In this document: positions 15,853-53,737 of the stretch, piece by piece | How the letters are laid out: each line of letters opens with the position of its first letter | Position numbering within the stretch: the stretch's first letter is position 1 | NCBI RefSeq assembly: GCF_004010195.1 | Contig: NC_057746.1 | Span: forward strand, 16,688,820 to 16,752,819 | Origin: Chiloscyllium plagiosum | Taxonomy: Eukaryota | Direction: 5' to 3' | DNA length: 64,000 nucleotides | The notes under the pieces: model-generated | Databases searched by the model: none | What the model was told of the DNA's origin: nothing | Seen by the model: the letters and a program-made list of their open reading frames with translations, nothing else | Translations under genes and position numbers: made by a program

Positions 15853-17268
15853 ATGGCAAATGGAACAGAAGCAACTCAATCTCTCAGCAACTTAACGGAC
15901 TTGTCTGCACCTGCAGGATGGTGCGCTTACAAAACGGTCGAAGTGGTCTGCATTGTGATTGCTACAGGAGCATTAAGTTTGGTGACTATCATTGGAAACA
16001 TTCTGGTCATTGTTTCTATCAAAATAAACAGACAATTACAAACTACTAACAACTACTTTATTTTCAGCTTAGCCTGTGCTGATTTGATCATTGGGGCATT
16101 CTCTATGAATCTTTACACTATTTATACTGTAAATGGATACTGGCCTCTGGGTCCAGTGGTATGTGATTTATGGCTTACTGTAGACTATGTTGTCAGTAAC
16201 GCCTCTGTTATGAACCTCCTTATCATAAGCTTTGACCGCTACTTCTGTGTGACAAAACCCCTTATCTACCCAGTGAAACGAACAACGAAGATGGCAGGGA
16301 TGATGGTTGCGGCTGCATGGGTGTTGTCTTTTTTCCTGTGGGCTCCTGCCATTCTCTTATGGCAGTTCATTGTAGGTGAGCGGGTTGTCGAAGAGGGCGA
16401 GTGTTACGTACAGTTCTTCTCAAATCCACCTGTCACTTTTGGCACTGCTATAATTGCCTTTTATATCCCAGTTACCATAATGGCGATTTTGTATGTGTAC
16501 ATATCTCGTGCCAGCAAGAGTCGAATGAAGGATGATAGAAATCATTCTGAATTATGTAAGGCAACTGTTACTCCAAGTGTAGTGAATAGCAAATTAATGA
16601 AACCAAACCGCACCAAAACAACAAATACTCTTGATGATTTGTTGGAGGTCAACATGAAACCTGACACAATAAGTAATGGAACATCAGGTGCCAGTTGGGT
16701 TCAAAGAAAAGCGGAGGCACTTTCCAGAGAATCTGACTTACTCAACCTGGCGTCATCAAATGCGAACAAGGAAAACGCTACACAAACGGGCACCAATTGC
16801 TTTACTGTATTTCACAATTTCAGGTCAGGCAACTTGACATGCTCTTCAATTTGCAGCAAATTTCAAAAGAATGATGTCTGTGGCATCAAGAAGCGAACAG
16901 TATCAGGGTTAAACATCAGGAATAGGAATGACAGAGAGATAAGAACAACAAATAACATTGTTAATGTGACCAGAACACATGTTAAGAGGGCAAAGGGTGC
17001 TGTATTACGAGAAAAGAAGGTAACTAGGACCATTCTGGCTATTCTCCTGGCCTTTATAATTACATGGACTCCGTACAATGTCATGGTTCTCATGGATACC
17101 TTCTGCTTAATCTGTGTCCCCAGCATAGTTTGGAACATCGGATACTGGCTCTGTTATATCAATAGTACACTAAATCCTGCCTGCTATGCATTGTGCAATA
17201 TGACCTTCAAGAAAACGTTCAAACATCTTCTCCTGTGTCAGTGCAAGAATATAAGTGCAACAAAATAA
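15853..17268 (+). CDS. CHRM2: Muscarinic acetylcholine receptor M2-like, 471 aa, single coding exon
   Basis: 7TM class A GPCR: [12 protein letters not shown]3.32 in [34 protein letters not shown] (M2 EDGE-like), [20 protein letters not shown] (Gi-type VTIL), [30 protein letters not shown] at 15853 follows a polypyrimidine tract and AG acceptor (~15826), as expected for CHRM genes with upstream non-coding exons. Symbol means M2-like; strict orthology is not established. Confidence 0.95.
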
Positions 17269-30066: not shown

Positions 30067-30566
30067 NNNNNNNNNNNNNNNNNNNNNNNNNNNNNNNNNN
30101 NNNNNNNNNNNNNNNNNNNNNNNNNNNNNNNNNNNNNNNNNNNNNNNNNNNNNNNNNNNNNNNNNNNNNNNNNNNNNNNNNNNNNNNNNNNNNNNNNNNN
30201 NNNNNNNNNNNNNNNNNNNNNNNNNNNNNNNNNNNNNNNNNNNNNNNNNNNNNNNNNNNNNNNNNNNNNNNNNNNNNNNNNNNNNNNNNNNNNNNNNNNN
30301 NNNNNNNNNNNNNNNNNNNNNNNNNNNNNNNNNNNNNNNNNNNNNNNNNNNNNNNNNNNNNNNNNNNNNNNNNNNNNNNNNNNNNNNNNNNNNNNNNNNN
30401 NNNNNNNNNNNNNNNNNNNNNNNNNNNNNNNNNNNNNNNNNNNNNNNNNNNNNNNNNNNNNNNNNNNNNNNNNNNNNNNNNNNNNNNNNNNNNNNNNNNN
30501 NNNNNNNNNNNNNNNNNNNNNNNNNNNNNNNNNNNNNNNNNNNNNNNNNNNNNNNNNNNNNNNNNN
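30067..30566. other. Assembly gap (exactly 500 N)
   Basis: Run of N. Confidence 1.
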
Positions 30567-33250: not shown

Positions 33251-33489
33251 CCCACACACCAAGGATCCATTTAAACATATCTCCTCTAAAGGTCTGTGAA
33301 TGTTGGGATAATTCAAAAGGAGCTCCATATCAGAGATGATTGCATTTTTGGAGACTGAGGTTTGTCTGATATTTTGGTGATTGAAGGAGATGAAACTGAA
33401 GTTAAAAATCAGCAATGATCTCATTGGGTGGTGTAGCAGCATGAGGAGCTGAATGGTCTCTGTCCCAAAAATGAATTGCAGCTCAGCTC

Positions 33490-33660
33490 ATTCTCCCAGC
33501 AACTAGAGATGAAAGTGGAAGTGTTTAGGTAATTGGAAATTCCCAATCGTGGGCGGAGTTATGGAACCTGGTTGTTGTCTATTCTGCGGAGTCTGCTGAC
33601 TCACTGAGTCTTTTTATTGTGATTGTATCGATAATAGTTTGGGACCAATCAGTGTGAAGG
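33490..33660 (+). promoter_or_regulatory. MHC class I promoter, copy A
   Basis: GAAAGTGGAAGT IRF/ETS-like (33511-33522), GGAAATTCCC NF-kB (33535-33544), GC box (33551), S-box-like GGAACCT (33563-33569), X2/AP-1 TGACTCA (33597-33603), mutated Y box ATTGT (33622-33626), CCAAT (33645-33649). Confidence 0.75.
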
Positions 33661-33837
33661 TGTCTCGGTGAAGAGGAACGGTAACAAGAACTAAAACAAA
33701 GTGCTGAAAAATCTGTCGGGAGAGATATTGAAGATCCTTCTTCAGAACAGTTTAATATCACTCTCGATTACAGCTCACAGACTGAGACAGTCCGGTGGAA
33801 AATAATCTCTCCTCCCAGACTGTCGACTGAAGTCACG

Positions 33838-34306
33838 ATGATTGGACTGATAGTGCTGGGACTTCTGTGGGGAGAGCTCTCTGCAGGTGAGGAATGGGAG
33901 GTGAGAGAGAGGCAGAGCCAGGCTGGGAACTGGGGCTTTAACCTTTGATCATGTTACCATCAGAATGGTTTATGGGGTAATATTTATCTGTTTCTTGTTT
34001 AAACGTCAGTGAATCCACTGTTTTAAATGGATTAAGTTCGTACGAGACTTAACCATAAGGCTAGAACAAAAGATCTGTAATTGCGAAATTCAAAAGATGT
34101 ATTGAACTATACAGGGTGAAATGTAAAATTGGCAGACGTTTTTTTTAAGTAAAAGGAAAAGAGAAAAAAGTTAACAATATCACGTGATGAAGCTGAAGTG
34201 AATTGTGAAATTCTCTCCAGTGCTGGAGAAAAGGTGAACAAAATGATTCATGATTCAGGAATTCATGCTCAGATTTTTCTGTGTTTCAGAAACTCACTCT
34301 CTCTGA
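33838..34306 (+). pseudogene. Truncated MHC class I copy: leader exon 33838-33886 and alpha1 stub 34290-34306 (MIGLIVLGLLWGELSA-ETHSL*)
   Basis: Leader exon with GT donor at 33887; acceptor TGTGTTTCAG at 34289 matches the true alpha1 acceptor at 41728; stop created at the duplication junction. Confidence 0.85.
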
Positions 34307-37402: not shown

Positions 37403-37709
37403 CTATATCTGCATCTAAGTAATTTATAAAAATGACAAACAGTAGTGGTCCCAAAACAGATCCTTGTGGCACACCACTAGTAACCAGACTCCAGGCTGAA
37501 TATTTTCCATCAACCACTACCCGCTGCCTTCTTTCAGAGAGCCACTTTCAAATCCAAACTGTTAAATCACCCTCAATTCCATGCCTCTGCATTTTCTCCA
37601 ACAGCCTACCATGTTACCTACTGGAGTGAAGATCAGCAATCAACTCTTTGGGTGGTGTGGCAGCATCGAGGGGCTGAATGGTCTCTGTCCCGAGAATAAA
37701 TTGCAGCTC

Positions 37710-37875
37710 AGCTATTCTCGCAGCAACTGGAGATGAGAGTAGAAGTGTTTCCGTGATTGAGAAGTCCCAATCCTGGGCGGAGTTATGCAACCGGTTCTTC
37801 CGGAGCCTGATGACTCACTGACTCTTTTTATTGTGATTGGACCGGTGATATTTTGGGACCAATCAGCGTGAAGGT
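37710..37875 (+). promoter_or_regulatory. MHC class I promoter, copy B (proximal to the intact gene)
   Basis: GC box (37775), X1/X2-like CCGGAGCCTGATGACTCA (TGACTCA 37811-37817), Y box ATTGG 18 nt downstream (37836-37840), CCAATCAGCGT (37859); kB and IRF sites degenerate. Confidence 0.75.
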
Positions 37876-38060
37876 GTCTCGGTGAACAGGAACAGGAACT
37901 AAAACCGAAATTGCTAAAAATCTGTAAAGATATTGGAGTTAACGTTTTAGGTCCAGTGACCCTTCTTCAGAACAGTTTAATGCCACTTGGGTACAGCTCA
38001 CAGATTGAGACAGTCCGCTGGAAAGTAATCTTTCCTTCCAGACTGTCAACTGAAGTCACG

Positions 38061-38109
38061 ATGATTGGACTGATAGTGCTGGGACTTTTGTGGGGAAAGC
38101 TTTCTGCAG
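38061..38109 (+). CDS. MHC class I exon 1 (signal peptide MIGLIVLGLLWGKLSA)
   Basis: Hydrophobic leader, ACGATG start context, CAG|GTGAGG phase-1 donor. Confidence 0.88.
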
Positions 38110-41100
38110 GTGAGGAATGGGGGTGTGACAGAGGGGTAGAGCCAAACTGGGAACTGGCCCATTAACCTTTGATCATGTTACCATCAGAATGGTTTATGGG
38201 GTACTTTTTTTCTGATTTCATGTCTAAACGTCAGTGAATCCACAGTTTAAATTATTTAGGTTAGTACGAGACTTAACCATAAGGCGAGAACAAAAAATCT
38301 TCATTTGCAAGATTTATTGAATTTCCAAAGGGAGAAAAGTAAAAATGTAGAATTGATAGTTTTTTCATGTGAAAGAAAGAAAAAATTGCGTTGAGAGTAA
38401 AACGTTAACGACGTCACATGATGAAGTGAATTGTGAAATTTCCTCCGTTCCCCAGCGCTGGGTAACAGATGGACAAAAGGCCTTCTTGAAAACTTCACCT
38501 TATATGATTAACTCTAGTTCATCATCTCAAATCAACCTAACTGTGGTCCACACATTGACTAACTTCTCTGTTTAATTATGATTGGTTACTGACACAGGAA
38601 ACTTTCCCAGGTTTGGGAACATTGTTTCCCATTCTAAAAGATGAAAGACTTCATCTAAACTTGTTTAAGAACTATAACCTGGTGTTCTGTGACTTTTAGC
38701 TAAAGTTGTTTAATATATCATTGCAACTCCATGACACTGTAACTCTTCTGCTAAAAATTCTGTGTCATATGGTCATGTTCCACAACCACCTTTCAACACT
38801 CCTCCAAGGACATGCAGGTCCTAGGCCACCTCCAACGACAAACCCTTACCACCCAACACCTGGAGGAAGAACACCACATTTTCTGCCTTGGGACCCTCGA
38901 ACCACACGGGATCAATGTGGATTTCACCAGTTTCCTCACTTTCTCTTCCACCCCACCCCCCCCACTCCCAGTCCCAAGCCTCCAACTGGGCACCACCCTC
39001 TTGACCAGTTAATCTTCCTTTCCACTATCTGCTCGACCCTACTCCCCGACCGGTCACCTTTACTCCCACCTTCATCTACCTACCACAGTTCCAGCTACTG
39101 TCCCACCAGGCTCACCCCTCTCCAATTTATTTCTCAGCCCCCCCCCCCCCCCCTCCCTCGGCCATTATCTTAATTCCTGATGAAGAGCTTGTGTGCAAAA
39201 CATTAATTCTCCTGTTTCTCAAATGCTTCCAGACCTACTGTGCTTTTCCAGCACCATGCTCTCGATTACTATGCTTGTGTCAGAAGGCTGTTTGTAATAA
39301 GTTACCAGTGTGAGAAATTGAGAGCCACTGATGAAACATGACATCTCTGACAAGGCATGGATGGCGCTGGGAGTTGACCTCATCTCTCTCACTCTGTCTC
39401 TCTGGAACTGAACATTTTCATCACTGTAGATGAACTAATCTTCTGTCTATAAGGTGGTGGACCATCTGACTGACTGCTCAGATTGTAGAATGTCTGTTTT
39501 TTTTTATGTAAGCAGTGTATCCATTACTACATTTTCAACATTTTGATGAACAAAATGGCAGAGTGAGGTGGTGAGTGAGATATCCAAGCTGCTTCAGAGA
39601 GGATTGTGAAATTGAACACCACACCAGAGTTCATCAAAATGAAAAGCTGAGCTGGAAATCAAAATTGCTAAAGGAATGAGAGACAAACTGAGCAAATCCA
39701 GTGGAGAAACAGATCCACTGAAGGCATGGTGAGTCATGCTCTTTCCAAACTGCTCTTCCACTGGCAAACCCAATCAAAGTGTTTTTAACTTCATTCATGG
39801 AAAAGTGGGAGTCACTGGCTGGGCCAGAATTTATTACCAATCCCTAATTTTTAAGAGACAGCCCCATTGCTGTGTGTCTACACTCACGTCCAAGCCAGGC
39901 CATGTAGGGATGGCAGTTTCATTTAGGAAAAGGACTCTAATGAATCAGATGCCCTTTTCCAGGGAATTGACATGATTTCATGTTTCAGACTCCTAATTCC
40001 AGAAAACTATTGAATTCAGATTCCATCAACTGCCTTTGCAAGATTTGAACCAAGGTCCCTGGAACCTTACCTGATTATTACTCCAGTGATGATACCACTC
40101 GGTCATCCCCTCCCTGTGAACACAGATACACCATTGCCAATCACAGTGCATACACACACACTGGAGTAACTGTTCTTTCACAGCAGCTGGCTGTGAAAGA
40201 TGGGAACAGAACCTGCACAGGCCACAAATCAACCATCAGATCCCAAGGTCCACCAAACCCTAGCATTGGAAATGGAACATAAGTGAAACCAGAAGTGACA
40301 TTGGAACAACTCTCCCAGGAGAAACAGCATAATCCAGAACAGCCAACAATGAAGAACGGCACAATTTAAGACTGTAAACTATTCATGTGCAGGGACTGAC
40401 ATGAATCTTGAACTGCTGTTGTATGAAGTCATGTGTCCATTATGGTTAATCTGGATAACTCGCAATGTGAGCAATAATCTAGGCAATTCCTTTATCTGCT
40501 GCCCTTGTCCTTCTGGATTGACATGATCATAGATTTGGAAGGTGCTGTTTTCAGGAGCACATTCCAAAACCTGCCTGAAAGTTTGAGTCTCAACCCCTGC
40601 TTTGGACGGATCTGGAATTCACTTGGAAAGCAAACAGTTCCTCTGTCTTCAAACATGGTGTGAAGCTGCCATCATAGCTTGCTGCTGTGGGGCAATTTAA
40701 GGCAGAAGCTGCAATAAAATGATTGACTTATAGAATACAGCAACAACATGGCTGAAGGAAGAATTCAGCTAAAGAAGCAGGGTTACTATAGGACATCCTT
40801 GCAGTAATTAGTTGTCTCAGCAGAAGCAGGATAACACACAACTGATCATGTCAAAAGCTTTCTCTCCACTTATGCTGCCAGACCTACTGAGTTTCTCTAG
40901 CTGTTTCTGTTTTCATTTCAGATAGAGCCTATGATATCTGGTAGACCATGAACAGCTACAGTGGTTATATAACAAAGCAGATAAGGTAAGGCCTTGATGA
41001 CTGCTGAAATGAAACATTTTGCTGGAAAGCAGGCCTCCGGTCCCATATCTGAAACTTGGTCACTTCTGTTTATTAGCAAGAAGTCTTTCCAAGCAGAGCA

Positions 41101-42882
41101 TGTGACTATGGCCCTGATCACCTGGTCACGTGATGTGGGGCCCCTTAACTGATTGGATAATAGCTTTTGAAATGTATTAAATAACTATTTAATCTGTAAG
41201 ATTTCCTTTGTTCAGTGGACAAGTATCAGAACTGTCCCAGAGACTTGCTCCCTGCTGATGAAATAATAAACTCTGATAACTGAAGCAGACCTTGGGTATC
41301 ATGTGATCCTCATAGTCATTCTGTCCCTTCACTGCCATCTCCCAACTTGGAAAGAACTCTTCAAATCCGTGGCTCTAGCCCCTTGGTCGCTGACCTTCAG
41401 GTAACCTGAGGAGAGCACACACAAATGTTGGTGGAAAGGGTCAACAAGTGGCTGATGAGATTTAACGTGAACAATGCAGAGATATACATTTTGGAAGGAA
41501 AAACCTGGAAAGACAAAATAAAGAGTGAAGCTCTAAATCAGGAATAAGGGACAGAGAGTCCAGCAGTTATAAAAGTAAAAATCATAGAATGTGGATGGGC
41601 AGGTTCAGACGATGGGATCCTGGGCTTTATAAATACAGGTATAGTGTGTGAAGAGAGCTCTCTCTCAGCGTTCAGTTAGAGTGATGGGTGTTTAGGGATT
41701 CATGTACTGATTTCTTTTTGTGTTTCAGACACTCACTCTCTCCGGTATTTTGTCACTGGTATGACTCCGATTCCTGGTTTCCCAGAGTTTGTGATTGTTG
41801 GTTATGTGGATGGGGTCCAGTTTGTTATGTACAACAGCAATTGGAAGGGGTTGATTGCCCGGAAGCAGTGGATGGTGGATAGTGAAGGACCAAAGGCCTG
41901 GAACCGGAAACTATTGCTTGCTCAGGAGCAAGAAGACATTGTCAGACGCAATATTCCAAGATTTATGACACGGACCAACCAGACAGGAGGTGAGTGCTCA
42001 CCGTCCCACAGCATGACATCTTTCTGTGCGTTTGGGGAGTATGGGTGGGAATGGGAGAAATTAGGAGTGAATCTGAGTTCCAGAGACTGACTGGCTGTGG
42101 GAATGGTTGGAGGGGACACCAACTGTCTCTGTCTCTGATCAGCAACTTGTGTTTCTGATTGACAGGGATCCACATTTACCAGATGATGACTGGCTGTGAC
42201 CTGAGGGATAATGGGACTGTAAGTGGGTTCACTCTCAGAGGATGGGATGGACAAGATTTGATCAGCTTCGATAAGGATCACATGGTGTGGGTGACCCCAG
42301 TCCACTGGGCGGAAAGCATCAAAAACAGGAAGGACCAGGATGTGGTGTCTAACCATCTATGGAAGCATTTTCTGGAGGTGGAGTGCATTGAATGGCTGAG
42401 GAAATGCCTGGAGTACGGACAGAGGGAACTGAGAGTCGGTGAGGGAGTGAGAGTTGTTGTGGTGAATGATGTCTGGGCTTTTCTCTCTCTGCGTTCCTGA
42501 ACTGATTCTTCTTCCTCTTCCCCTCTCCCTCAGTTGCCCCGATCGTGTCCGTTACCCGTCTGGGTGATTTTAACTGGCTGGTCTGTCTTGTCACTGGGTT
42601 TTACCGACAAGCCATCGAGGTGACTCTATGGAGGGATGGAGTGTTGATCGATGAGCCCCTGTCCACCGGGATCTTGCCCAATCACGACAGGACCTATCAG
42701 ATCCGGAAATGGATAGAGTTTGATCCAGAGGACCAGGCCGAGTATTCCTGTCAGGTGGAGCACAGCGGATTGGAGGAGAAGCTGGTGGTGATTTATGGTA
42801 AGACTCATTCTCACTGTTAGAGAGGAACCAGGATCACAAGAGAGAGAGGACCAGCTGAGCTGCTTCAGCAGGACGCTCCAGG

Positions 42883-45900: not shown

Positions 45901-48900
45901 AGCCAGGTTGAGTCTACTACATCTCATCAGGCAGTGATTCTGGTGATCAAAAACAGTTATTTCCAAATTGGGGGTAGTCTGTATTCAGGAAGACAGCAGC
46001 AAGTTACAGAAAGGCATTAACAAACCTTCAAACTGAACAAATGATTGGTAAGTGAAGTAGAGGAACAAAACAATCTCAGAGAAAAAACACCCAATTACTG
46101 AATGTTGTGCACAGATTAGAGTCCTACAGCACGGACACAGGCCCTTTGGCTGAAACTGGTCCGTGCCAATCAAAATATTCATCACCACTACCCCCATTTC
46201 CCTTCACTTGACCCATATCCTTCTAAGTTGAAACTTTATTGCTGGAACAGCACAGCAGGTCAGGCAGCATCCAGGGAACAGGAGATTCGACGTTTCGGGC
46301 ACAGGCCCTTCTTCAGGAGGGCCTGTGCCCGAAACGTCGAATCTCCTGTACCCTGGATGCTGCCTAACCTGCTGTGCTGTTCCAGCAATAAAGTTTCAAC
46401 TTTGATCTCCAGCATCTGCAGACCTCACTTTCTCCCCATATCCTTCTAAACCTTTCCCTGTCCATGTATTTGTCCAAATGCCTTTTACACGGTGGTAATG
46501 TACCACCCTCTGCGAAAACATTGTCCCTCAGCTTCCCTTTTATTCTTTCCCCTGCAACCTTAAACTGATGCCCTGTAGCCTTTGATTCCCCAACCCTATT
46601 AAAGCGACTGAGTGCATTCACCTTATCCATGCCTCTAGTGATCTTATACGTTTCTGTAAGATCCTCCCCCACCTTCATTTCCTACACTCTAAAGAAAAAA
46701 GTCCTAGTTTGCCCAACTTCTCCTTCTAACTTAGTCCCTTGTGTCTTGGCAACTGCCTTGTAAATTTCTTCTGCACGCTTTCCAGTTTAATAACATCCTT
46801 CCTATTAGCAAAGTGACCAAAACCACAATACTGCAAGTGCAGCCTCACCAATGTTCTGTACCACTGCAATATAACTTCCCAACTTCTATACTCAATGCCC
46901 TGACTGATGAAGGCTGATGTGCCAAAAGCTGCCTTCAATGTCCTGTCTACTTGTGACTCTACTTTCAGAGAACCATGCAACTGAACTCCAAGGTCCCTCT
47001 GTTCCACTACATTCCTTAATGCACTACCATTCACCATGAAACTCGTGCTTTGATTTGAGTTTCCAAAATGAAGACCTCGCATGTATCTGCATTAAACTCC
47101 ATTTGCCATTTCTCTGCTCATTTCCCCAGCTGATCAAGGACCTGCTGCAATTTCTGATCACCTTCCTCGCTGTATTTGATACTGCCTATTTCAGTATCAT
47201 CTGCAAACTTACTAACCATGCCTTGTACATTCTCATCCAAATCGTTGATATAGATAACAAACAGCAATGGGCCCAGCACCAATCCACTGATTCTTGTGGC
47301 ACTCCAATGGTCACAGGCCTCCAGTCTGACAAGCATCCTTCCGTTATTACCTGCTACTTTCTAACAAATGTGTATTCAATTTGCCAGCTCCCCCTGGATT
47401 CCATTCAATCTAACCTTCAGAGCAGCCTACCATGAGGAATCTTAGCAAAGGCCTTACTGAAATCCATATACTGCCCTGCCCTCATCAACCTTCCCGGTCA
47501 CTTTATCAAAGAACTATAACAAATTTGTGAGGCATGATCTCCCATTCACACAGTCATGCTGAGTATTCCTAATCAAACTGTCTTTCCAAATGCATATAAT
47601 ATCTTATCTCAGAATCTTCTCAAGTAACTTACCTACCACAGATGTTCGGCTGACTGGTCTATCGTTCCCAGGATTTTCTTTGCAGCCCGCATAACCTTCA
47701 CTACTGTCCATAACTTCCATGACCTCACCCCGTGGATAACAATTAGAAAGGGCATTTTTTTATGAACAACCTGAGGATAGGCTTTAATTTTTAGAGGAGA
47801 TTTAGCATATGCCACCTCACCTTCAATTCTACCTTGAAGTTTGGTTAGACCACATATTGAGAACTGCAGACAGTTCCGGTCACCATGTGATATAAAGGAT
47901 ATTGAGGCACTGGAGAGAGTGCTGAGAAGATTTACAATGTCAATATCAGAAACGTGTGAGTGTATGTATCAGGAAAGGATTGAGAGGCTTGATGTCTTCT
48001 CTCTTGAATGATGGAGCCTGAATAGAGATCTTTAAAATGATGAATCATTTTGAAAGAGTGGGTGCAGAGAGAATGTTTGTGGAAGGGCACAACTAGGGAC
48101 TATCAACACAAGGCAGTCACCAAATATTCCGCATGGGATTGCAGAGAAGCTTTGACAGTCGGACCATGAGGAGAATGTGAATCTTGCTGCTGAAGGGAGT
48201 GAGATTGTCAAGATATATTTAGAGGGAAATTAGAAAGGAATCAGGAGTGATGGTGATAGATATAAATGAGAAAGGAATGTGGAGCTTCAAGAGACTAAAT
48301 ACAGGTGTATGTTGATTGGACCAAATGGGTTCAGTGTGTGCCTTTTATTTTCTTCTTTCTCTCTCTTCATGCCTCACTCGGCTCTCTGTCTCTCTGTGAC
48401 AGACCCAAAGTCTCATGCCCAGGTTCCTGTTCCTATTGGGATTGTATTCGGAGTCCTCTGGATCATCTCTCTCTCTGTTGTGGCTGTCACCATTTACAAG
48501 AAGAAAGGTTGGAGGTTTTGAGAAAATGGCAGCTCCTCACGGTTGGGGGTTTCAGGGAATTGGAAATGATCCCAGCGATGAAGAGCTTGTTATATGATGA
48601 GCTGTTGAGGACTCTGCGTGCGTACTGGATGGAGTTGAAAATGTTGAGAGCAAATCTCATGAAAAGTATACATTACTGAGAGGAGTGGATGTGGAGAAGA
48701 TGTAGGAGACACGAGGACCCAAGGGAACAGCCTCCGTGTGACGGGATGACCTTTTAGAACTGAGGAGGAATTTCCTCAGTGGTGACTCTGTGGAACCCAT
48801 TGCTGCAGAAGGTTGTGGAGGCCAAGACATTGAGTGTCTTTAAGACAGAGATAGGTTCTTGATTGGTAAACGGCTCAAGGTTACAGTGAGAAGGCAGGAG

Positions 48901-50019
48901 AATGAGGTTGAGAAATATATCAACCACAGTGGGCTGAATGGCCTAATTCTGCTCTATATCTTATAGTCTCCAGTTGATAGTTTTGGTTCAGAGGTGGGCA
49001 AGGAACGTCTGTGTTTGGGTGTCAGTCTCAGGGTTAGTGATAGCTCAGGCAGTGGGGAGAGGGCATTAGTTTGTGAAGGAGGGTCTAAGCGTCCCTTCGT
49101 ATGGAGATTGTTCCCTTGGATCCTACTCTAACTTGTTCCTCAGGTTAGGCTGGAGTGTCTCAGGGGTTGGAGTCTCACGTTGTGAGTGTGAGGTCAGACA
49201 GTTCAGATTGGGGCTGGGTCTCAGTTCACTGTTGGGCATAAACAGCTCAGGGCAATGTGGGTAGGAGAGGCTGAGTCTGGATGGGAGTGAGGGTCTTCAG
49301 CATTTCCTCTGACGTTCTGACACTGACTGAACATTCCTTGTTTTACAGGGGGAATGAAAAATGACTACAATCCAACAAACAGTAAGCTGATAATTCAGAC
49401 ATCTCAGCGTCTGTGTTAGTGTATGACAAGCTGTTCTTTCTGTTTCACACAAAGAACCACAAACGCAGAGATCTGAAACAGAAAAAAGCAGAAATTGCTG
49501 GAGAAACTCAGTAGGTTTGGCAGCAGCTGTGGAGAGAAAAACACAGTTAACATTGAGTCCAGTGACTTTTTGTTCTGGGAGTTCTGTTGTGTGAGTGTGT
49601 GGCAGTGGAGTGGGTGGGGGTCGGGGTCACTGGATCTAAAGCATTACTTCTGCTTCCTCTCTCTCCACAGATGCAGGCAGACATGCTGAGATTCTCCAGC
49701 AATTTTTTTGTTCTGTCTGGTCTAGACTGGTCTATCTGTCTTTCGTTCTCCTGTTGGTCTCATGTGCTCTCTCTCTCTCTCATACACTCTTTCTTTCTTT
49801 TACATCTGTGGGTCATTTTTGCTCTCACTCCTGTTCCGCTCTCTCTCATTTCTTTTGCTTACGCTTCCTCTCTTGCATTTTTCTCTATAACGCCCTTTCT
49901 CTCACACTCATGTTTCTCACTCTCTCTTTCGCTCTGATAATGAGCAGTTTCTAATGCCTCTCTTTCCGTTAACAGCTTCTGATAAAAGGACATCCTCAGA
50001 CAGTTCTGTCATTTCCTGA
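38061..50019 (+). CDS. Non-classical MHC class I heavy chain, join(38061-38109,41729-41989,42166-42438,42534-42797,48403-48507,49349-49381,49976-50019), 342 aa
   Basis: All six introns GT-AG and phase 1; spliced length 1029 nt, open to TGA at 50017-50019; leader, alpha1, alpha2, alpha3, TM and two cytoplasmic exons. Tentatively resembles the elasmobranch UBA lineage from memory (MTPIPG, GWDG, WVTPV), not verified. Confidence 0.93.
38740..39270 (+). mobile_element. Penelope-like 3' fragment in MHC intron 1
   Basis: LEEEHHIFCLGTLEPHGINVDF GIY-YIG C-terminus, C-rich tract, decayed CTGATGAAG...AAAC motif. Confidence 0.8.
40960..41331 (+). mobile_element. Possible solo LTR in MHC intron 1
   Basis: Ordered CTGATTGG, TATTTAA, AATAAA and a CA end, but no clear TSD. 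Confidence 0.35.
41729..41989 (+). CDS. MHC class I exon 2 (alpha1)
   Basis: DTHSLRYF..PEFVIVGYVDG..W..EGP..W..NQT glycosylation site; TTTCAG acceptor, G|GTGAGT donor. Confidence 0.96.
42166..42438 (+). CDS. MHC class I exon 3 (alpha2)
   Basis: GIHIYQMMTGC..WDGQD..W..ECIEWL, C101/C164 pair; GACAG acceptor, G|GTGAGG donor. Confidence 0.96.
42534..42797 (+). CDS. MHC class I exon 4 (alpha3, Ig C1 domain)
   Basis: LVCLVTGFY..W.RDG..LPNHD.TYQ..YSCQVEHSGL; CCTCAG acceptor, G|GTAAGA donor. Confidence 0.96.
42885..42914 (+). repeat. (AG)n microsatellite
   Basis: About 15 uninterrupted AG units. Confidence 0.95.
43530..45335 (+). mobile_element. CR1 LINE, internally deleted, in MHC intron 4
   Basis: VPLFKK..PGNYRPVNLT..SQHGF, RRRGDLIEVYKI, RVVHVWNELP, CTATGACT tail. 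Confidence 0.9.
43672..43891 (+). mobile_element. Penelope-derived hairpin mini-element
   Basis: Inverted arms plus constant tail; 13-bp TSD AGGCTGTAGGAGT (43659-43671, 43892-43904). Confidence 0.85.
46115..47690 (-). mobile_element. CR1 LINE RT/3' part in MHC intron 4
   Basis: [37 protein letters not shown]. Confidence 0.9.
46227..46434 (+). mobile_element. Penelope-derived hairpin mini-element
   Basis: Near-perfect ~175-nt palindrome (46226-46401) plus tail; 15-bp TSD CCCATATCCTTCTAA (46212-46226, 46435-46449); intact hammerhead core on the minus strand (46316 to 46289). Confidence 0.9.
48403..48507 (+). CDS. MHC class I exon 5 (connecting peptide and transmembrane)
   Basis: DPKSHAQVPVPIGIVFGVLWIISLSVVAVTIYKKK; long pyrimidine tract and GACAG acceptor; phase 1/1. 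Confidence 0.9.
48560..48970 (+). mobile_element. Old CR1 3' end in MHC intron 5 (similar relics at ~47800-48340 and ~50560-51040)
   Basis: Decayed ORF2 C-terminus and GGGCTGAATGGCCTAATTCTGCTC 3'UTR. Confidence 0.7.
49349..49381 (+). CDS. MHC class I exon 6 (cytoplasmic, GGMKNDYNPTN)
   Basis: 33-nt phase 1/1 exon, TTACAG acceptor, A|GTAAGC donor, conserved class I cytoplasmic Tyr. Confidence 0.85.
49976..50019 (+). CDS. MHC class I exon 7 (cytoplasmic, TSDKRTSSDSSVIS*)
   Basis: AACAG acceptor; SD..SDSS like the class I SDxS motif; TGA followed after 1 nt by a G|GTATGA donor, so a further 3'UTR exon is likely. Confidence 0.82.
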
Positions 50020-52014
50020 GGTATGAGTATTGTTGGTCAATGTTGTGAGAAGATCATTCTAATTGGGATACAGAAAAACCTCGATTATGTGAATGACATG
50101 GGCGGGGAGTATGTAGTTTGGATAACTGATTGTTTTTGATCATATCAGTTATCCGAACAAAGCAAGCATTGACAGGACTTAGATCTTATTCAAATAATCT
50201 GAAATTCAGATAATTGATGTTTGAATAACCGAGGGTAATCTGTATTGGGGCTGGTTTTCACTGTACGATCTGCAGGGTGGACTCTGAGCTCAGTTCTCTC
50301 TACTTGTGTGATCACTAAAGACCAGCTCATGCAGTTTCACACTGAGCTTTCAGACTGTCCTTCTGTAGATGGCTGTCCTTATACTGTTCTCAGCCTCAAG
50401 ATATTGTCAACAGGAGGGATTTGGGCTACAGAAACATCTGGAAACTTTTCATCCTGGATGGGGCTCCTGTCTCACTTAGTTTGTTTCTGGAGTTGAGCTC
50501 TGCGCTCCCGGGATTCTGAATTACTGAAATGTGGCCAGTGGGGTCTAGATCTGATGGAGACCTCCGAACAGGTCAGGAGACCAAACCGTGAGGAGATTTG
50601 TGATCCTGGAGGGAGTGCAGTATAGATGGGCCAGAATGAAATGTGGACTTCGAGGTTTAAATTACACAGACATTAAACAAACAAACTAGGGTCGTGTTTC
50701 AGGAAATGAAGGTTAAGGGCTGATTTTAATGGAGGTTTTCAATGTATTTAGTGAAGTGGATATGGTAGATAGAGGAGAACTGTTCTGACTGGCTGGGGTG
50801 TCAGTATAGTTCGAGTCAGACCTATTGAGAGTGAAACTAGGTAACACTTCCACAATAACTCACCCTTTCTCAAAAGGCAATTGATGCAAAATGAACTTGA
50901 GTGAATTTAAAATCTAGAAAACTCAGAATTAAGAGACAAATGGAAGCTACATAAATGGATTGAGGCAACACACCAGCAAAGATCTGATTGAATGGTGGAA
51001 CGGCATTGAGGGGTTAAATGGCCTCCTCATCTTCCTATGTCCCTGTGGGTTTTGCTGGTCTTTAGGGAGTGGGTCTGAGGGGTTTTACTGATGTTTGGGC
51101 AATGGGGCTTTTGTGTTTCACTGCTGGTCTTTATGGGAGATGCTACAGGGTCTGCTGGGTTTTCTGTGCTCTGTAACAGAGTTTTTTTTCTCTTCCCCAG
51201 GGGCCTCTGATGTCCTTGCTGGAAACCAGGTTTCCATTGCTGCGATTGACCTTCTAATTTCTTCCACCTGAATTTCAGAAGCAATTTGAATTGCCGATCC
51301 GGAATAGTGAAGAGCCAGCCTAATGGTGACCATGTAACCATTACGGTTTGTTGTTAAAAGTCATCTGGTGCACTAATGTCCTTCCACGATAGAAATCCTG
51401 ACCTGGTCTGGTCTACATGGCATGACAGAGCTAGTTAACGCTTAACTGCCCTCTGGACAGCAAATGCTGGCATTGCCGGTGATGGCCACATCTCAGGAAA
51501 CAGCTTTTAATGTGGACAGTGTGATTATGTTTCCTGAGCAGAAACTTCATCTCCACAGGACAGCACTCAGTTTTCATGCCCCATGCACTATACCTCAGTC
51601 AATTCAGCACATACACATGATCTTCTTCAGCCATTCGTCAGTGGGATTATCCCAGACCTCAGTTTGAATTTTCCTGCATCTTAAATACTGAGTGAAGCCT
51701 TTTCTACAAACTTGTTACACAGCAATATCTCTGGAGCCTGATGGAAGTCAACATTACATTACGATGGTACATACTGTCTCATGGCAATAGATGTCATGAC
51801 TCCACCTCCTGCCCAGAGCATGCTGCACCCTCACACTTTCTGACTTGAACTGTTTCCATGTTCCCACTCCTATCAATTTATACCCTTCCTCGTGCAAATT
51901 CTCAATAGAGCTGCGTACTCATGGTCTGCATTCCAGCCTCCTGTCTTGGGATCAAGGCTGCACTATTTCCTGTCCCACTCTCTCCAACTCGGATTGTGCT
52001 GAGGTGTTTATTGA

Positions 52015-53237: not shown

Positions 53238-53737
53238 NNNNNNNNNNNNNNNNNNNNNNNNNNNNNNNNNNNNNNNNNNNNNNNNNNNNNNNNNNNNNNN
53301 NNNNNNNNNNNNNNNNNNNNNNNNNNNNNNNNNNNNNNNNNNNNNNNNNNNNNNNNNNNNNNNNNNNNNNNNNNNNNNNNNNNNNNNNNNNNNNNNNNNN
53401 NNNNNNNNNNNNNNNNNNNNNNNNNNNNNNNNNNNNNNNNNNNNNNNNNNNNNNNNNNNNNNNNNNNNNNNNNNNNNNNNNNNNNNNNNNNNNNNNNNNN
53501 NNNNNNNNNNNNNNNNNNNNNNNNNNNNNNNNNNNNNNNNNNNNNNNNNNNNNNNNNNNNNNNNNNNNNNNNNNNNNNNNNNNNNNNNNNNNNNNNNNNN
53601 NNNNNNNNNNNNNNNNNNNNNNNNNNNNNNNNNNNNNNNNNNNNNNNNNNNNNNNNNNNNNNNNNNNNNNNNNNNNNNNNNNNNNNNNNNNNNNNNNNNN
53701 NNNNNNNNNNNNNNNNNNNNNNNNNNNNNNNNNNNNN
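53238..53737. other. Assembly gap (exactly 500 N)
   Basis: Run of N. Confidence 1.

Follow-up and report, generated by a model that had tools for sequence, protein, structure and literature searches.

The UBA genes of sharks form a multicopy class Ib lineage of MHC class I that derives from classical UAA, and their function is described as unknown (PMC12562908, PMC10751288), as are the functions of shark class Ib lineages generally (PMC10751288). In classical class I molecules the anchors Y7, Y59, R84, T143, K146, W147, Y159 and Y171 are conserved (PMC4364491); Y7, Y59 and Y171 bind the free amino terminus of the peptide (PMC2193201), and Y159 is conserved along with them (PMC4364491). Mouse H2-M3 binds N-formyl peptides after A-pocket changes that include Tyr171Phe (PMC2193201), and chicken BF2*0401 holds acidic peptides by way of Arg9, Arg80 and Arg111 (PMC8926493).

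The locus analysed here, within a 64,000-nucleotide stretch of the Chiloscyllium plagiosum genome (the window), is a transcribed UBA-lineage non-classical MHC class I heavy-chain gene (Table 1). It is already annotated in RefSeq: its exons match XP_043533915-924, with 100% identity to XP_043533916 over alpha1, and seven RefSeq isoform sequences could be placed on the window, accounting for two leader exons, alpha1 to alpha3, transmembrane and cytoplasmic exons and two alternative last exons. All exons of a class I gene, from leader through the C1-set alpha3 domain to the cytoplasmic tail, are in frame, and exons 2, 3 and 4 are open, bounded by AG and GT and in phase 1. The sequence has the two conserved disulfides, the N86 sequon and the beta2-microglobulin (beta2m)-contact residues, and Pfam recognises MHC_I and C1-set domains. 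An AlphaFold model, which was guided by a class I alignment and is not an experimental structure, has a class I fold with block pLDDT values of 80-98 over alpha1-alpha2. The best solved match to both sequence (52% identity) and model is the shark classical structure 6LUP, followed in the fold search by MR1 and chicken BF2 at 34-38% identity, matches that mirror the common fold and say nothing about the ligand. Homodimer prediction for residues 17-282 gave 0.26 and 0.23 against a mark of 0.32, in a run without folded controls.

Table 1. Features of the UBA-lineage class I gene in the window (positions are those of the whole stretch).
Feature	Position	Strand	Remarks
Leader (signal peptide) exon, upstream copy	33838..33886	+	ATG start, GT donor, phase 1
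Leader exon, second copy	38061..38109	+	RefSeq isoforms X1, X2, X4-X6
Cryptic exon in intron 1	40922..40985	+	donor side in run X6 contig, acceptor inferred
Exon 2, alpha1 domain	41729..41989	+	Y7, A59, K63, L64-L66, P79, R80, R84, N86 sequon
Exon 3, alpha2 domain	42166..42438	+	C101, R116, L123, I143, R146, K147, F159, C164, W167, C171
K147 codon AAG	42330..42332	+
C171 codon TGC, fifth ectodomain cysteine	42405..42407	+
Exon 4, alpha3 Ig C1-set domain	42534..42797	+
R210 codon in GFYP motif	42605..42607	+
Transmembrane exon	48403..48507	+
First cytoplasmic exon	49349..49381	+	spliced straight onto alpha3 in a run X6 contig
Last coding exon, family type, with stop	49976..50019	+
Alternative last coding exon	51201..51271	+	RefSeq isoforms X1, X3, X4, X6, X7

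Both leader copies are in frame on splicing and each is used by some RefSeq isoforms, the upstream one, whose 16 residues are identical in the C. punctatum orthologue, by isoform X3 (P0022) with an in-frame splice to alpha1. The second copy sits in a local duplication of about 900 bp in which promoter and leader are repeated (33395-34243 and 37620-38478, 78% identical), and this block may be all that is left of a second UBA gene, stripped of its other exons. No second set of class I exons 2-4 was found in the 64-kb window, where the only gene nearby is a single-exon 7TM receptor gene (Pfam 7tm_1, about 470 residues, 15853-17265, + strand) 16 kb upstream of the first leader. From its motifs we take this gene to resemble a muscarinic acetylcholine receptor; it is not among the UBA flanking genes named in the relevant parts of PMC10751288. 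The window also has two assembly gaps of 500 bases each (30067-30566 and 53238-53737), and much of its remainder consists of LINE-like fragments and short interspersed repeats.

That the gene belongs to the shark UBA lineage is virtually certain. In an alignment of 107 units (102 distinct) the closest named protein is nurse shark AAC60347 (P0012), labelled Gcirratum_UBA in the PMC10751288 supplement, with identities of 67, 71 and 83% over alpha1, alpha2 and alpha3; the corresponding values are 48, 55 and 52% for Gici-UAA and 34, 35 and 43% for Gici-UDA. From the 100 rows in which alpha1-alpha2 is sufficiently complete, a quick tree recovered a 59-row clade that includes the UBA reference (SH-aLRT 98). 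The phylogeny called for in the preliminary description was run with UAA, UBA and UDA references and without those for UCA, UEA, UFA and UGA, as a careful tree of 38 hand-picked rows, and it put the gene and AAC60347 together in a 29-row UBA clade (support 100/100), within a Hemiscylliidae expansion (100/99) and sister to two C. punctatum models (100/100). Its alpha1-alpha2 region thus groups with AAC60347 to the exclusion of UAA and UDA, Gici-UDA standing on a separate branch (P0130 was equated by eye with Gici_UDA of the PMC10751288 supplement). The gene also fits the multicopy pattern of UBA, two further C. plagiosum UBA units being present in P0029, and carries the lineage-typical K63, I143, P79 and A/S/F59. 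Given this strong placement, membership of UCA, UFA, UGA or UEA appears unlikely from the sequence, and UCA, UFA and UGA look distant by eye in the alignment of the PMC10751288 supplement. The searched parts of that supplement held no bamboo-shark locus table. A UBA molecule with both K147 and C171 is undescribed in the literature searched, though the original UBA paper and the UDA and UEA papers may discuss these residues or list the gene.

HLA-A2 numbering was given to the groove residues by eye, following the alignment published with PMC10751288 as a supplement. The nine peptide-terminus anchors, which are the eight classical ones and position 123 (F or Y in the classical set), read Y7/A59/R84/L123/I143/R146/K147/F159/C171, exactly as the preliminary description had them, and with only Y7 and R84 kept (2/9) the molecule lacks the classical class Ia set. 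The alignment likewise bears out K63, L64-L66, P79 and R116 as well as the structural and beta2m-contact residues (H3, D29, W60, N86, Q96, C101, D119, G120, D122 and C164), and the K147 codon is indeed two changes from TGG. A one-step arginine intermediate between W147 and K147 is possible, R147 being seen in one other UBA row. The ectodomain has five cysteines (precursor residues 114, 177, 184, 212 and 267), so one is unpaired, as had been claimed. The proposed interruption of the alpha1 helix by P79 was not borne out: in the AlphaFold model the helix is predicted to be continuous over precursor residues 71-98, through P79 (residue 93), with a block pLDDT of 96. P79 was also set aside as a special feature, since it occurs in 38/56 other UBA rows. 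An MR1-type Schiff-base lysine was ruled out as well, as the positions here that we take to match MR1 K43 (mapped to position 45), R9 and R94 are L45, V9 and M97.

The view of this groove as highly atypical holds against classical molecules and not within UBA, where most of the odd residues are ordinary. The anchors of AAC60347 read Y/F/R/L/I/R/W/F/Y, so that five of the seven lost in the bamboo-shark gene (59, 123, 143, 146 and 159) are lost there too, and AAC60347 already carries K63, L64, P79, L123, I143, R146 and F159. Among the other UBA rows, A59 is found in 34/56, K63 in 52/55, L66 in 47/55, R116 in 18/56, L123 in 13/56, I143 in 48/56, R146 in 22/56 and F159 in 8/55; W147 is replaced in 19/55 (by cysteine in 8/55), and two or fewer anchors are kept in five of the 48 that have all nine positions. 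What is rare is K147 (1/55), C171 (1/56, and also present in two unrelated Heterodontus rows), R80 (2/56) and L155 (1/55). Of 20 changes private to the copy seven fall at groove positions, an enrichment that was not significant (p 0.13) and was dropped, and the 37-49 loop has a cluster of five, among them P47A at a site that is proline in 52/56 rows.

Other molecules in the alignment have unusual grooves of their own. Most members of a Mustelus asterias UBA subgroup (P0048-P0049, P0015, P0045-P0047 and P0054) combine C147 with C95, a pair close to the F pocket that might be joined in an additional disulfide. Four UBA rows (P0004b, P0067, P0081 and P0077) keep between none and two of the nine anchors and have A halves more hydrophobic than that of the bamboo-shark gene, which on sequence would make them better candidates for lipid binding. 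A further class I group (P0090, P0097, P0102, P0106, P0107 and P0110), which resembles 'UAA-2' of the PMC10751288 supplement, has a groove nearly invariant across horn shark, catsharks and carpet sharks, which suggests one fixed peptide ligand.

The F half of the bamboo-shark groove carries a net charge of +5 over 16 positions, where no value exceeds +4 among 55 other UBA rows or +3 among 41 non-UBA rows, and its F end is the most basic of all rows compared, to which the rare K147 and R80 contribute. The hydropathy of the A half, 1.09, is higher than in any of 38 non-UBA rows (maximum 0.94) but equalled or surpassed in 7/48 UBA rows; over both halves the hydrophobic count is 19/33, equal to that of classical Gici-UAA. 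Five duplicate UBA rows and P0103 were removed from the non-UBA set for these ranks, which are descriptive because the A/F split was drawn after the sequence was seen and the pocket positions are those that we take to follow HLA-A2 definitions. The basic groove of the preliminary description therefore stands as the most basic F end among the rows compared, whereas a non-peptide ligand does not follow from positive charge in a groove, since chicken BF2*0401 takes acidic peptides through groove arginines.

At the level of the genus the alpha1-alpha2 groove is probably under selection. The C. punctatum orthologue, separated by a split dated to about 20.9 Ma (PMC7677710), differs at 0/87 positions in alpha1, 3/90 in alpha2 and 8-9/88 in alpha3. 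The alpha2 differences (I94M, R104K and N106D against P0026) all fall outside the groove list, and both K147 and C171 are kept. Conservation of alpha1-alpha2 (3/177) exceeds that of alpha3 (Fisher p 0.003-0.007) and that of the same domains in two paralogous orthologue pairs (21/354; p 0.027), and the UBA paralogues mostly vary freely at groove positions. Position 106 forms an additional N-glycosylation sequon in alpha2 of C. plagiosum (N106-G-T, window 42213 region; base 42210), which is absent from C. punctatum with D106.

Two other organisms provided a nucleotide-level view. Run X14 (organism B), which is DNA-like, gave an intron-1 contig with 23 differences in 578 bases, a pair of intron-2 contigs with 5 and 0 differences per 115 bases and an exon-2 contig with 1/218. 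This intron divergence of 2.8-4.0% leads to an expectation of 12-17 replacements in alpha1-alpha2, and three or fewer then have a Poisson probability of 0.002 to 0.00005, in a test that sets C. punctatum protein against an organism B intron baseline whose intron-1 contig may be a close paralogue. An exon-3 contig of run X18 (organism C) shows five differences, four of them silent and none at K147 or C171, so that C171 is retained in C. plagiosum, C. punctatum and organism C. Over organism C exons 2-3, four of nine displayed changes are replacements (ratio near 0.2, p 0.02), one counted change coming from a 40-base contig that is possibly a paralogue; in the worst case the figures are 6/11, 0.31 and p 0.056. 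The stem branch of the gene measures 0.17 substitutions per site and the tips about 0.01, a long stem with short tips that points to fast change followed by stasis. Retention of K147 and C171, together with the conservation of alpha1-alpha2 relative to alpha3, makes the groove look selected. In alpha3, 8-9 differences are seen where 7-8 would be expected at the neutral rate, and turnover is as high in a paralogous pair (10/88). Ahead of the first cysteine of alpha3 (window 42566-42590) both Chiloscyllium proteins have an unusual F-N-W-L-V stretch, and organism C has family-type residues there. On sequence, alpha3 looks like a patchwork produced by gene conversion among paralogues.

Four of 24 listed runs were aligned (X6, X14, X18 and X22); the run search turned up no carrier of the sequence registered as RNA. 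Runs X6 (organism A) and X18 give exon-only coverage with spliced alpha1-alpha2 and alpha2-alpha3 joints, from which we conclude that the gene is transcribed; in run X6 the joints are GT..AG and the main contigs match with 0 differences. Run X18 adds the leader-to-alpha1 and alpha3-to-transmembrane joins, the latter as a consensus of two contigs, and run X22 (raw single-cell RNA) gave 0 aligned reads from about 6% of the run. Run X6 is the one organism A run informative on allelic polymorphism, and its main contigs have 0 differences. Its matching contigs rule out assembly error behind K147, C171 or R210; for K147 and C171 the two C. punctatum models, which have both residues, do so too. At the upstream end displayed for run X6 stands the cryptic exon, which ends at 40985 and, taken as a 64-nt exon, would introduce a stop at codon 24 after either leader; RefSeq isoform X7 is likewise leaderless. 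At the downstream end a matching contig skips the transmembrane exon, as RefSeq isoforms X4 and X5 do. These extensions are the only perfectly matching ones among those displayed, a further 32 pieces and 38 differences lying outside the display. The arginine at position 210 of the alpha3 GFYP motif is unique (1/105 rows, proline in the other 104/105); it is confirmed by a run X6 contig with 0 differences, and runs X14 and X18 and C. punctatum have proline. Judged from sequence, the gene looks functional at the level of the genus; given P210R, the frameshifting cryptic exon and the skipping of the transmembrane exon, its copy in C. plagiosum may have been weakened or may be secreted in part. 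Of the folded non-classical class I molecule put forward in the preliminary description, non-classical is upheld and the fold stands as a prediction. Neutral pseudogene decay of alpha1-alpha2 is at odds with transcription and with replacement in these domains below the neutral expectation; a decaying pseudogene was one of the outcomes that the same description had named as overturning it.

We propose, tentatively and with confidence a little below even, that the groove takes ligands of a narrow, peptide-like kind, with an acidic end and no ordinary free N-terminus. If the molecule is functional at all, an acidic-ended ligand class with a blocked or overhanging N-terminus becomes slightly favoured. 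The gene would have arisen by duplication within Hemiscylliidae, with quick change of the copy and then purifying selection. At the F end, R80, R84, R116, R146 and K147 would grip a carboxylate-rich terminus, as the precedent of Arg80 and Arg111 in BF2*0401 suggests for five basic residues so placed, with K147 perhaps standing in for the hydrogen-bond donor W147. The A end has lost three tyrosine hydroxyls (Y59, Y159 and Y171), and K63 stands where an acidic or amide residue is usual. Such changes, for which H2-M3 is the precedent, would tell against a free alpha-amino group and give the advantage to ligands whose N-terminus is blocked or overhanging. C171 may most simply be a small residue in place of a tyrosine no longer needed. 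Paired with beta2-microglobulin, the molecule would serve in restricted, innate-like display. Throughout, the ligand is something that we infer.

The apolar A half and the charge of the F half would also suit an anionic amphipathic lipid or lipopeptide, its tail in the A half and its head group on the F-end arginines and lysine. Chicken YF1*7.1 offers the model, with a hydrophobic A pocket and with Arg82 and Arg142 binding acetate and proposed to hold an anionic head group (PMC2998441), and small residues at 9, 59, 67, 99, 114 and 171 would enlarge the bamboo-shark cavity. We nevertheless regard this as unlikely: an A half of this hydropathy is normal for UBA, the hydrophobic count over both halves is no different from that of Gici-UAA, and sharks already own CD1-like lipid binders in UFA and UGA (PMC12562908, as a personal communication there). 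We would give a similarly low probability to a broader proposal, in which a young duplicate from the classical-derived UBA lineage has kept a two-faced groove for ~21 million years, with a free cysteine in its apolar A half and five positive charges at its F end, and presents anionic lipids, lipopeptides or phosphorylated metabolites, possibly covalently and independently of CD1, MR1 and shark UFA/UGA. A more reactive role for C171 or K147, as a covalent ligand trap or through disulfide dimers that serve as receptor ligands and are possibly cargo-free, is in our view improbable. The odd cysteine has been kept in all three organisms, A59 beside it would leave the A pocket more open than usual, and dimers formed through the free cysteine of HLA-B27 are seen by receptors that differ from those of the monomer (PMC4364491). 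Against this, position 171 points into the A pocket of classical structures (PMC2193201), so that C171 would be partly buried. A change from Y to C takes a single base, C171 is also found in the Heterodontus rows, C147 is no rarity among UBA rows, and what we take to be the MR1 Schiff-base position is L45.

The odd residues might instead be damage under relaxed selection in a birth-and-death duplicate whose C. plagiosum copy is decaying or makes mostly secreted or truncated products. The long stem includes changes at conserved structural sites (D37N, P47A, W147K and Y171C), and the unique P210R, the cryptic exon with its early stop, the skipped transmembrane exon, the near-neutral rate of alpha3 and the absence of an orthologue among the Hemiscyllium ocellatum proteins returned all fit such a history. 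It seems a doubtful account all the same, for every frame and splice site is intact, alpha1 is identical at 87/87 positions after about 21 Ma (date from PMC7677710), run X18 joins leader to alpha1 and alpha3 to the transmembrane exon, and the equally high alpha3 turnover of the paralogous pair fits gene conversion. We attach hardly any weight to the idea that the molecule goes on presenting ordinary free-terminus peptides with reduced affinity, as happens in class I molecules with single anchor changes. Y7, R84, W167 and the beta2m-contact residues remain, Y171F lowers peptide binding without abolishing it (PMC4364491) and UBA itself descends from classical UAA (PMC12562908), yet seven of nine anchors differ at once, only one of the four N-terminal tyrosines is left and K63 puts a positive charge at the site of the amino group.

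A groove that changed fast and was then frozen while alpha3 kept changing is a good fixed-ligand candidate, and this makes the protein a sensible first UBA molecule for refolding and elution. It could also test whether peptide-derived class I scaffolds have repeatedly switched ligand class. The value of the finding is modest, as the first UBA sequences already revealed the lineage and the anchors that it lacks, RefSeq annotates the gene and the variant was seen in one genus only. It is a genus-level UBA variant whose F end is conserved and unusually basic and which has one unpaired cysteine.

Elasmobranch UBA (nurse shark AAC60347/O19479; horn shark O19480) is the same clade and multicopy, and the bamboo-shark gene has in common with it K63, L64, P79, L123, I143, R146, F159, W156 and E163. 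It departs from the other UBA rows in its F-end charge and in K147, C171, R80, W42, A47 and L155, which are rare or absent elsewhere, and R210 is confined to C. plagiosum. Shark classical UAA (Gici-UAA, PDB 6LUP) has the same exon plan and beta2m-contact residues; it falls in a separate clade and retains all nine anchors where the bamboo-shark gene has two. The likeness to chicken BF2*0401 (PDB 4E0R) lies in a strongly positive groove with arginines near the F pocket for an acidic C-terminal anchor, and is one of analogy without orthology: BF2*0401 is a classical allele, whereas in the bamboo-shark molecule the F end carries the charge and valine occupies position 9. Chicken YF1*7.1 is likewise built on a classical scaffold, with an A pocket that is apolar and basic residues placed over the F pocket, but its non-peptide ligands have been demonstrated, whereas the bamboo-shark molecule, known by sequence only, has a groove no more hydrophobic than that of Gici-UAA. 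In mouse H2-M3, A-pocket changes that include the loss of Y171 accompany a blocked peptide N-terminus; its L167, F171 and H9 differ from W167, C171 and V9 here, so formyl specificity is not implied. The teleost Z lineage also has alpha1-alpha2 better conserved than alpha3, which has been read as a sign of a fixed ligand (PMC4364491). In contrast to the bamboo-shark gene, it keeps most anchors and is conserved across ray-finned fish, whereas the K147/C171 variant was seen only in close relatives of one genus.
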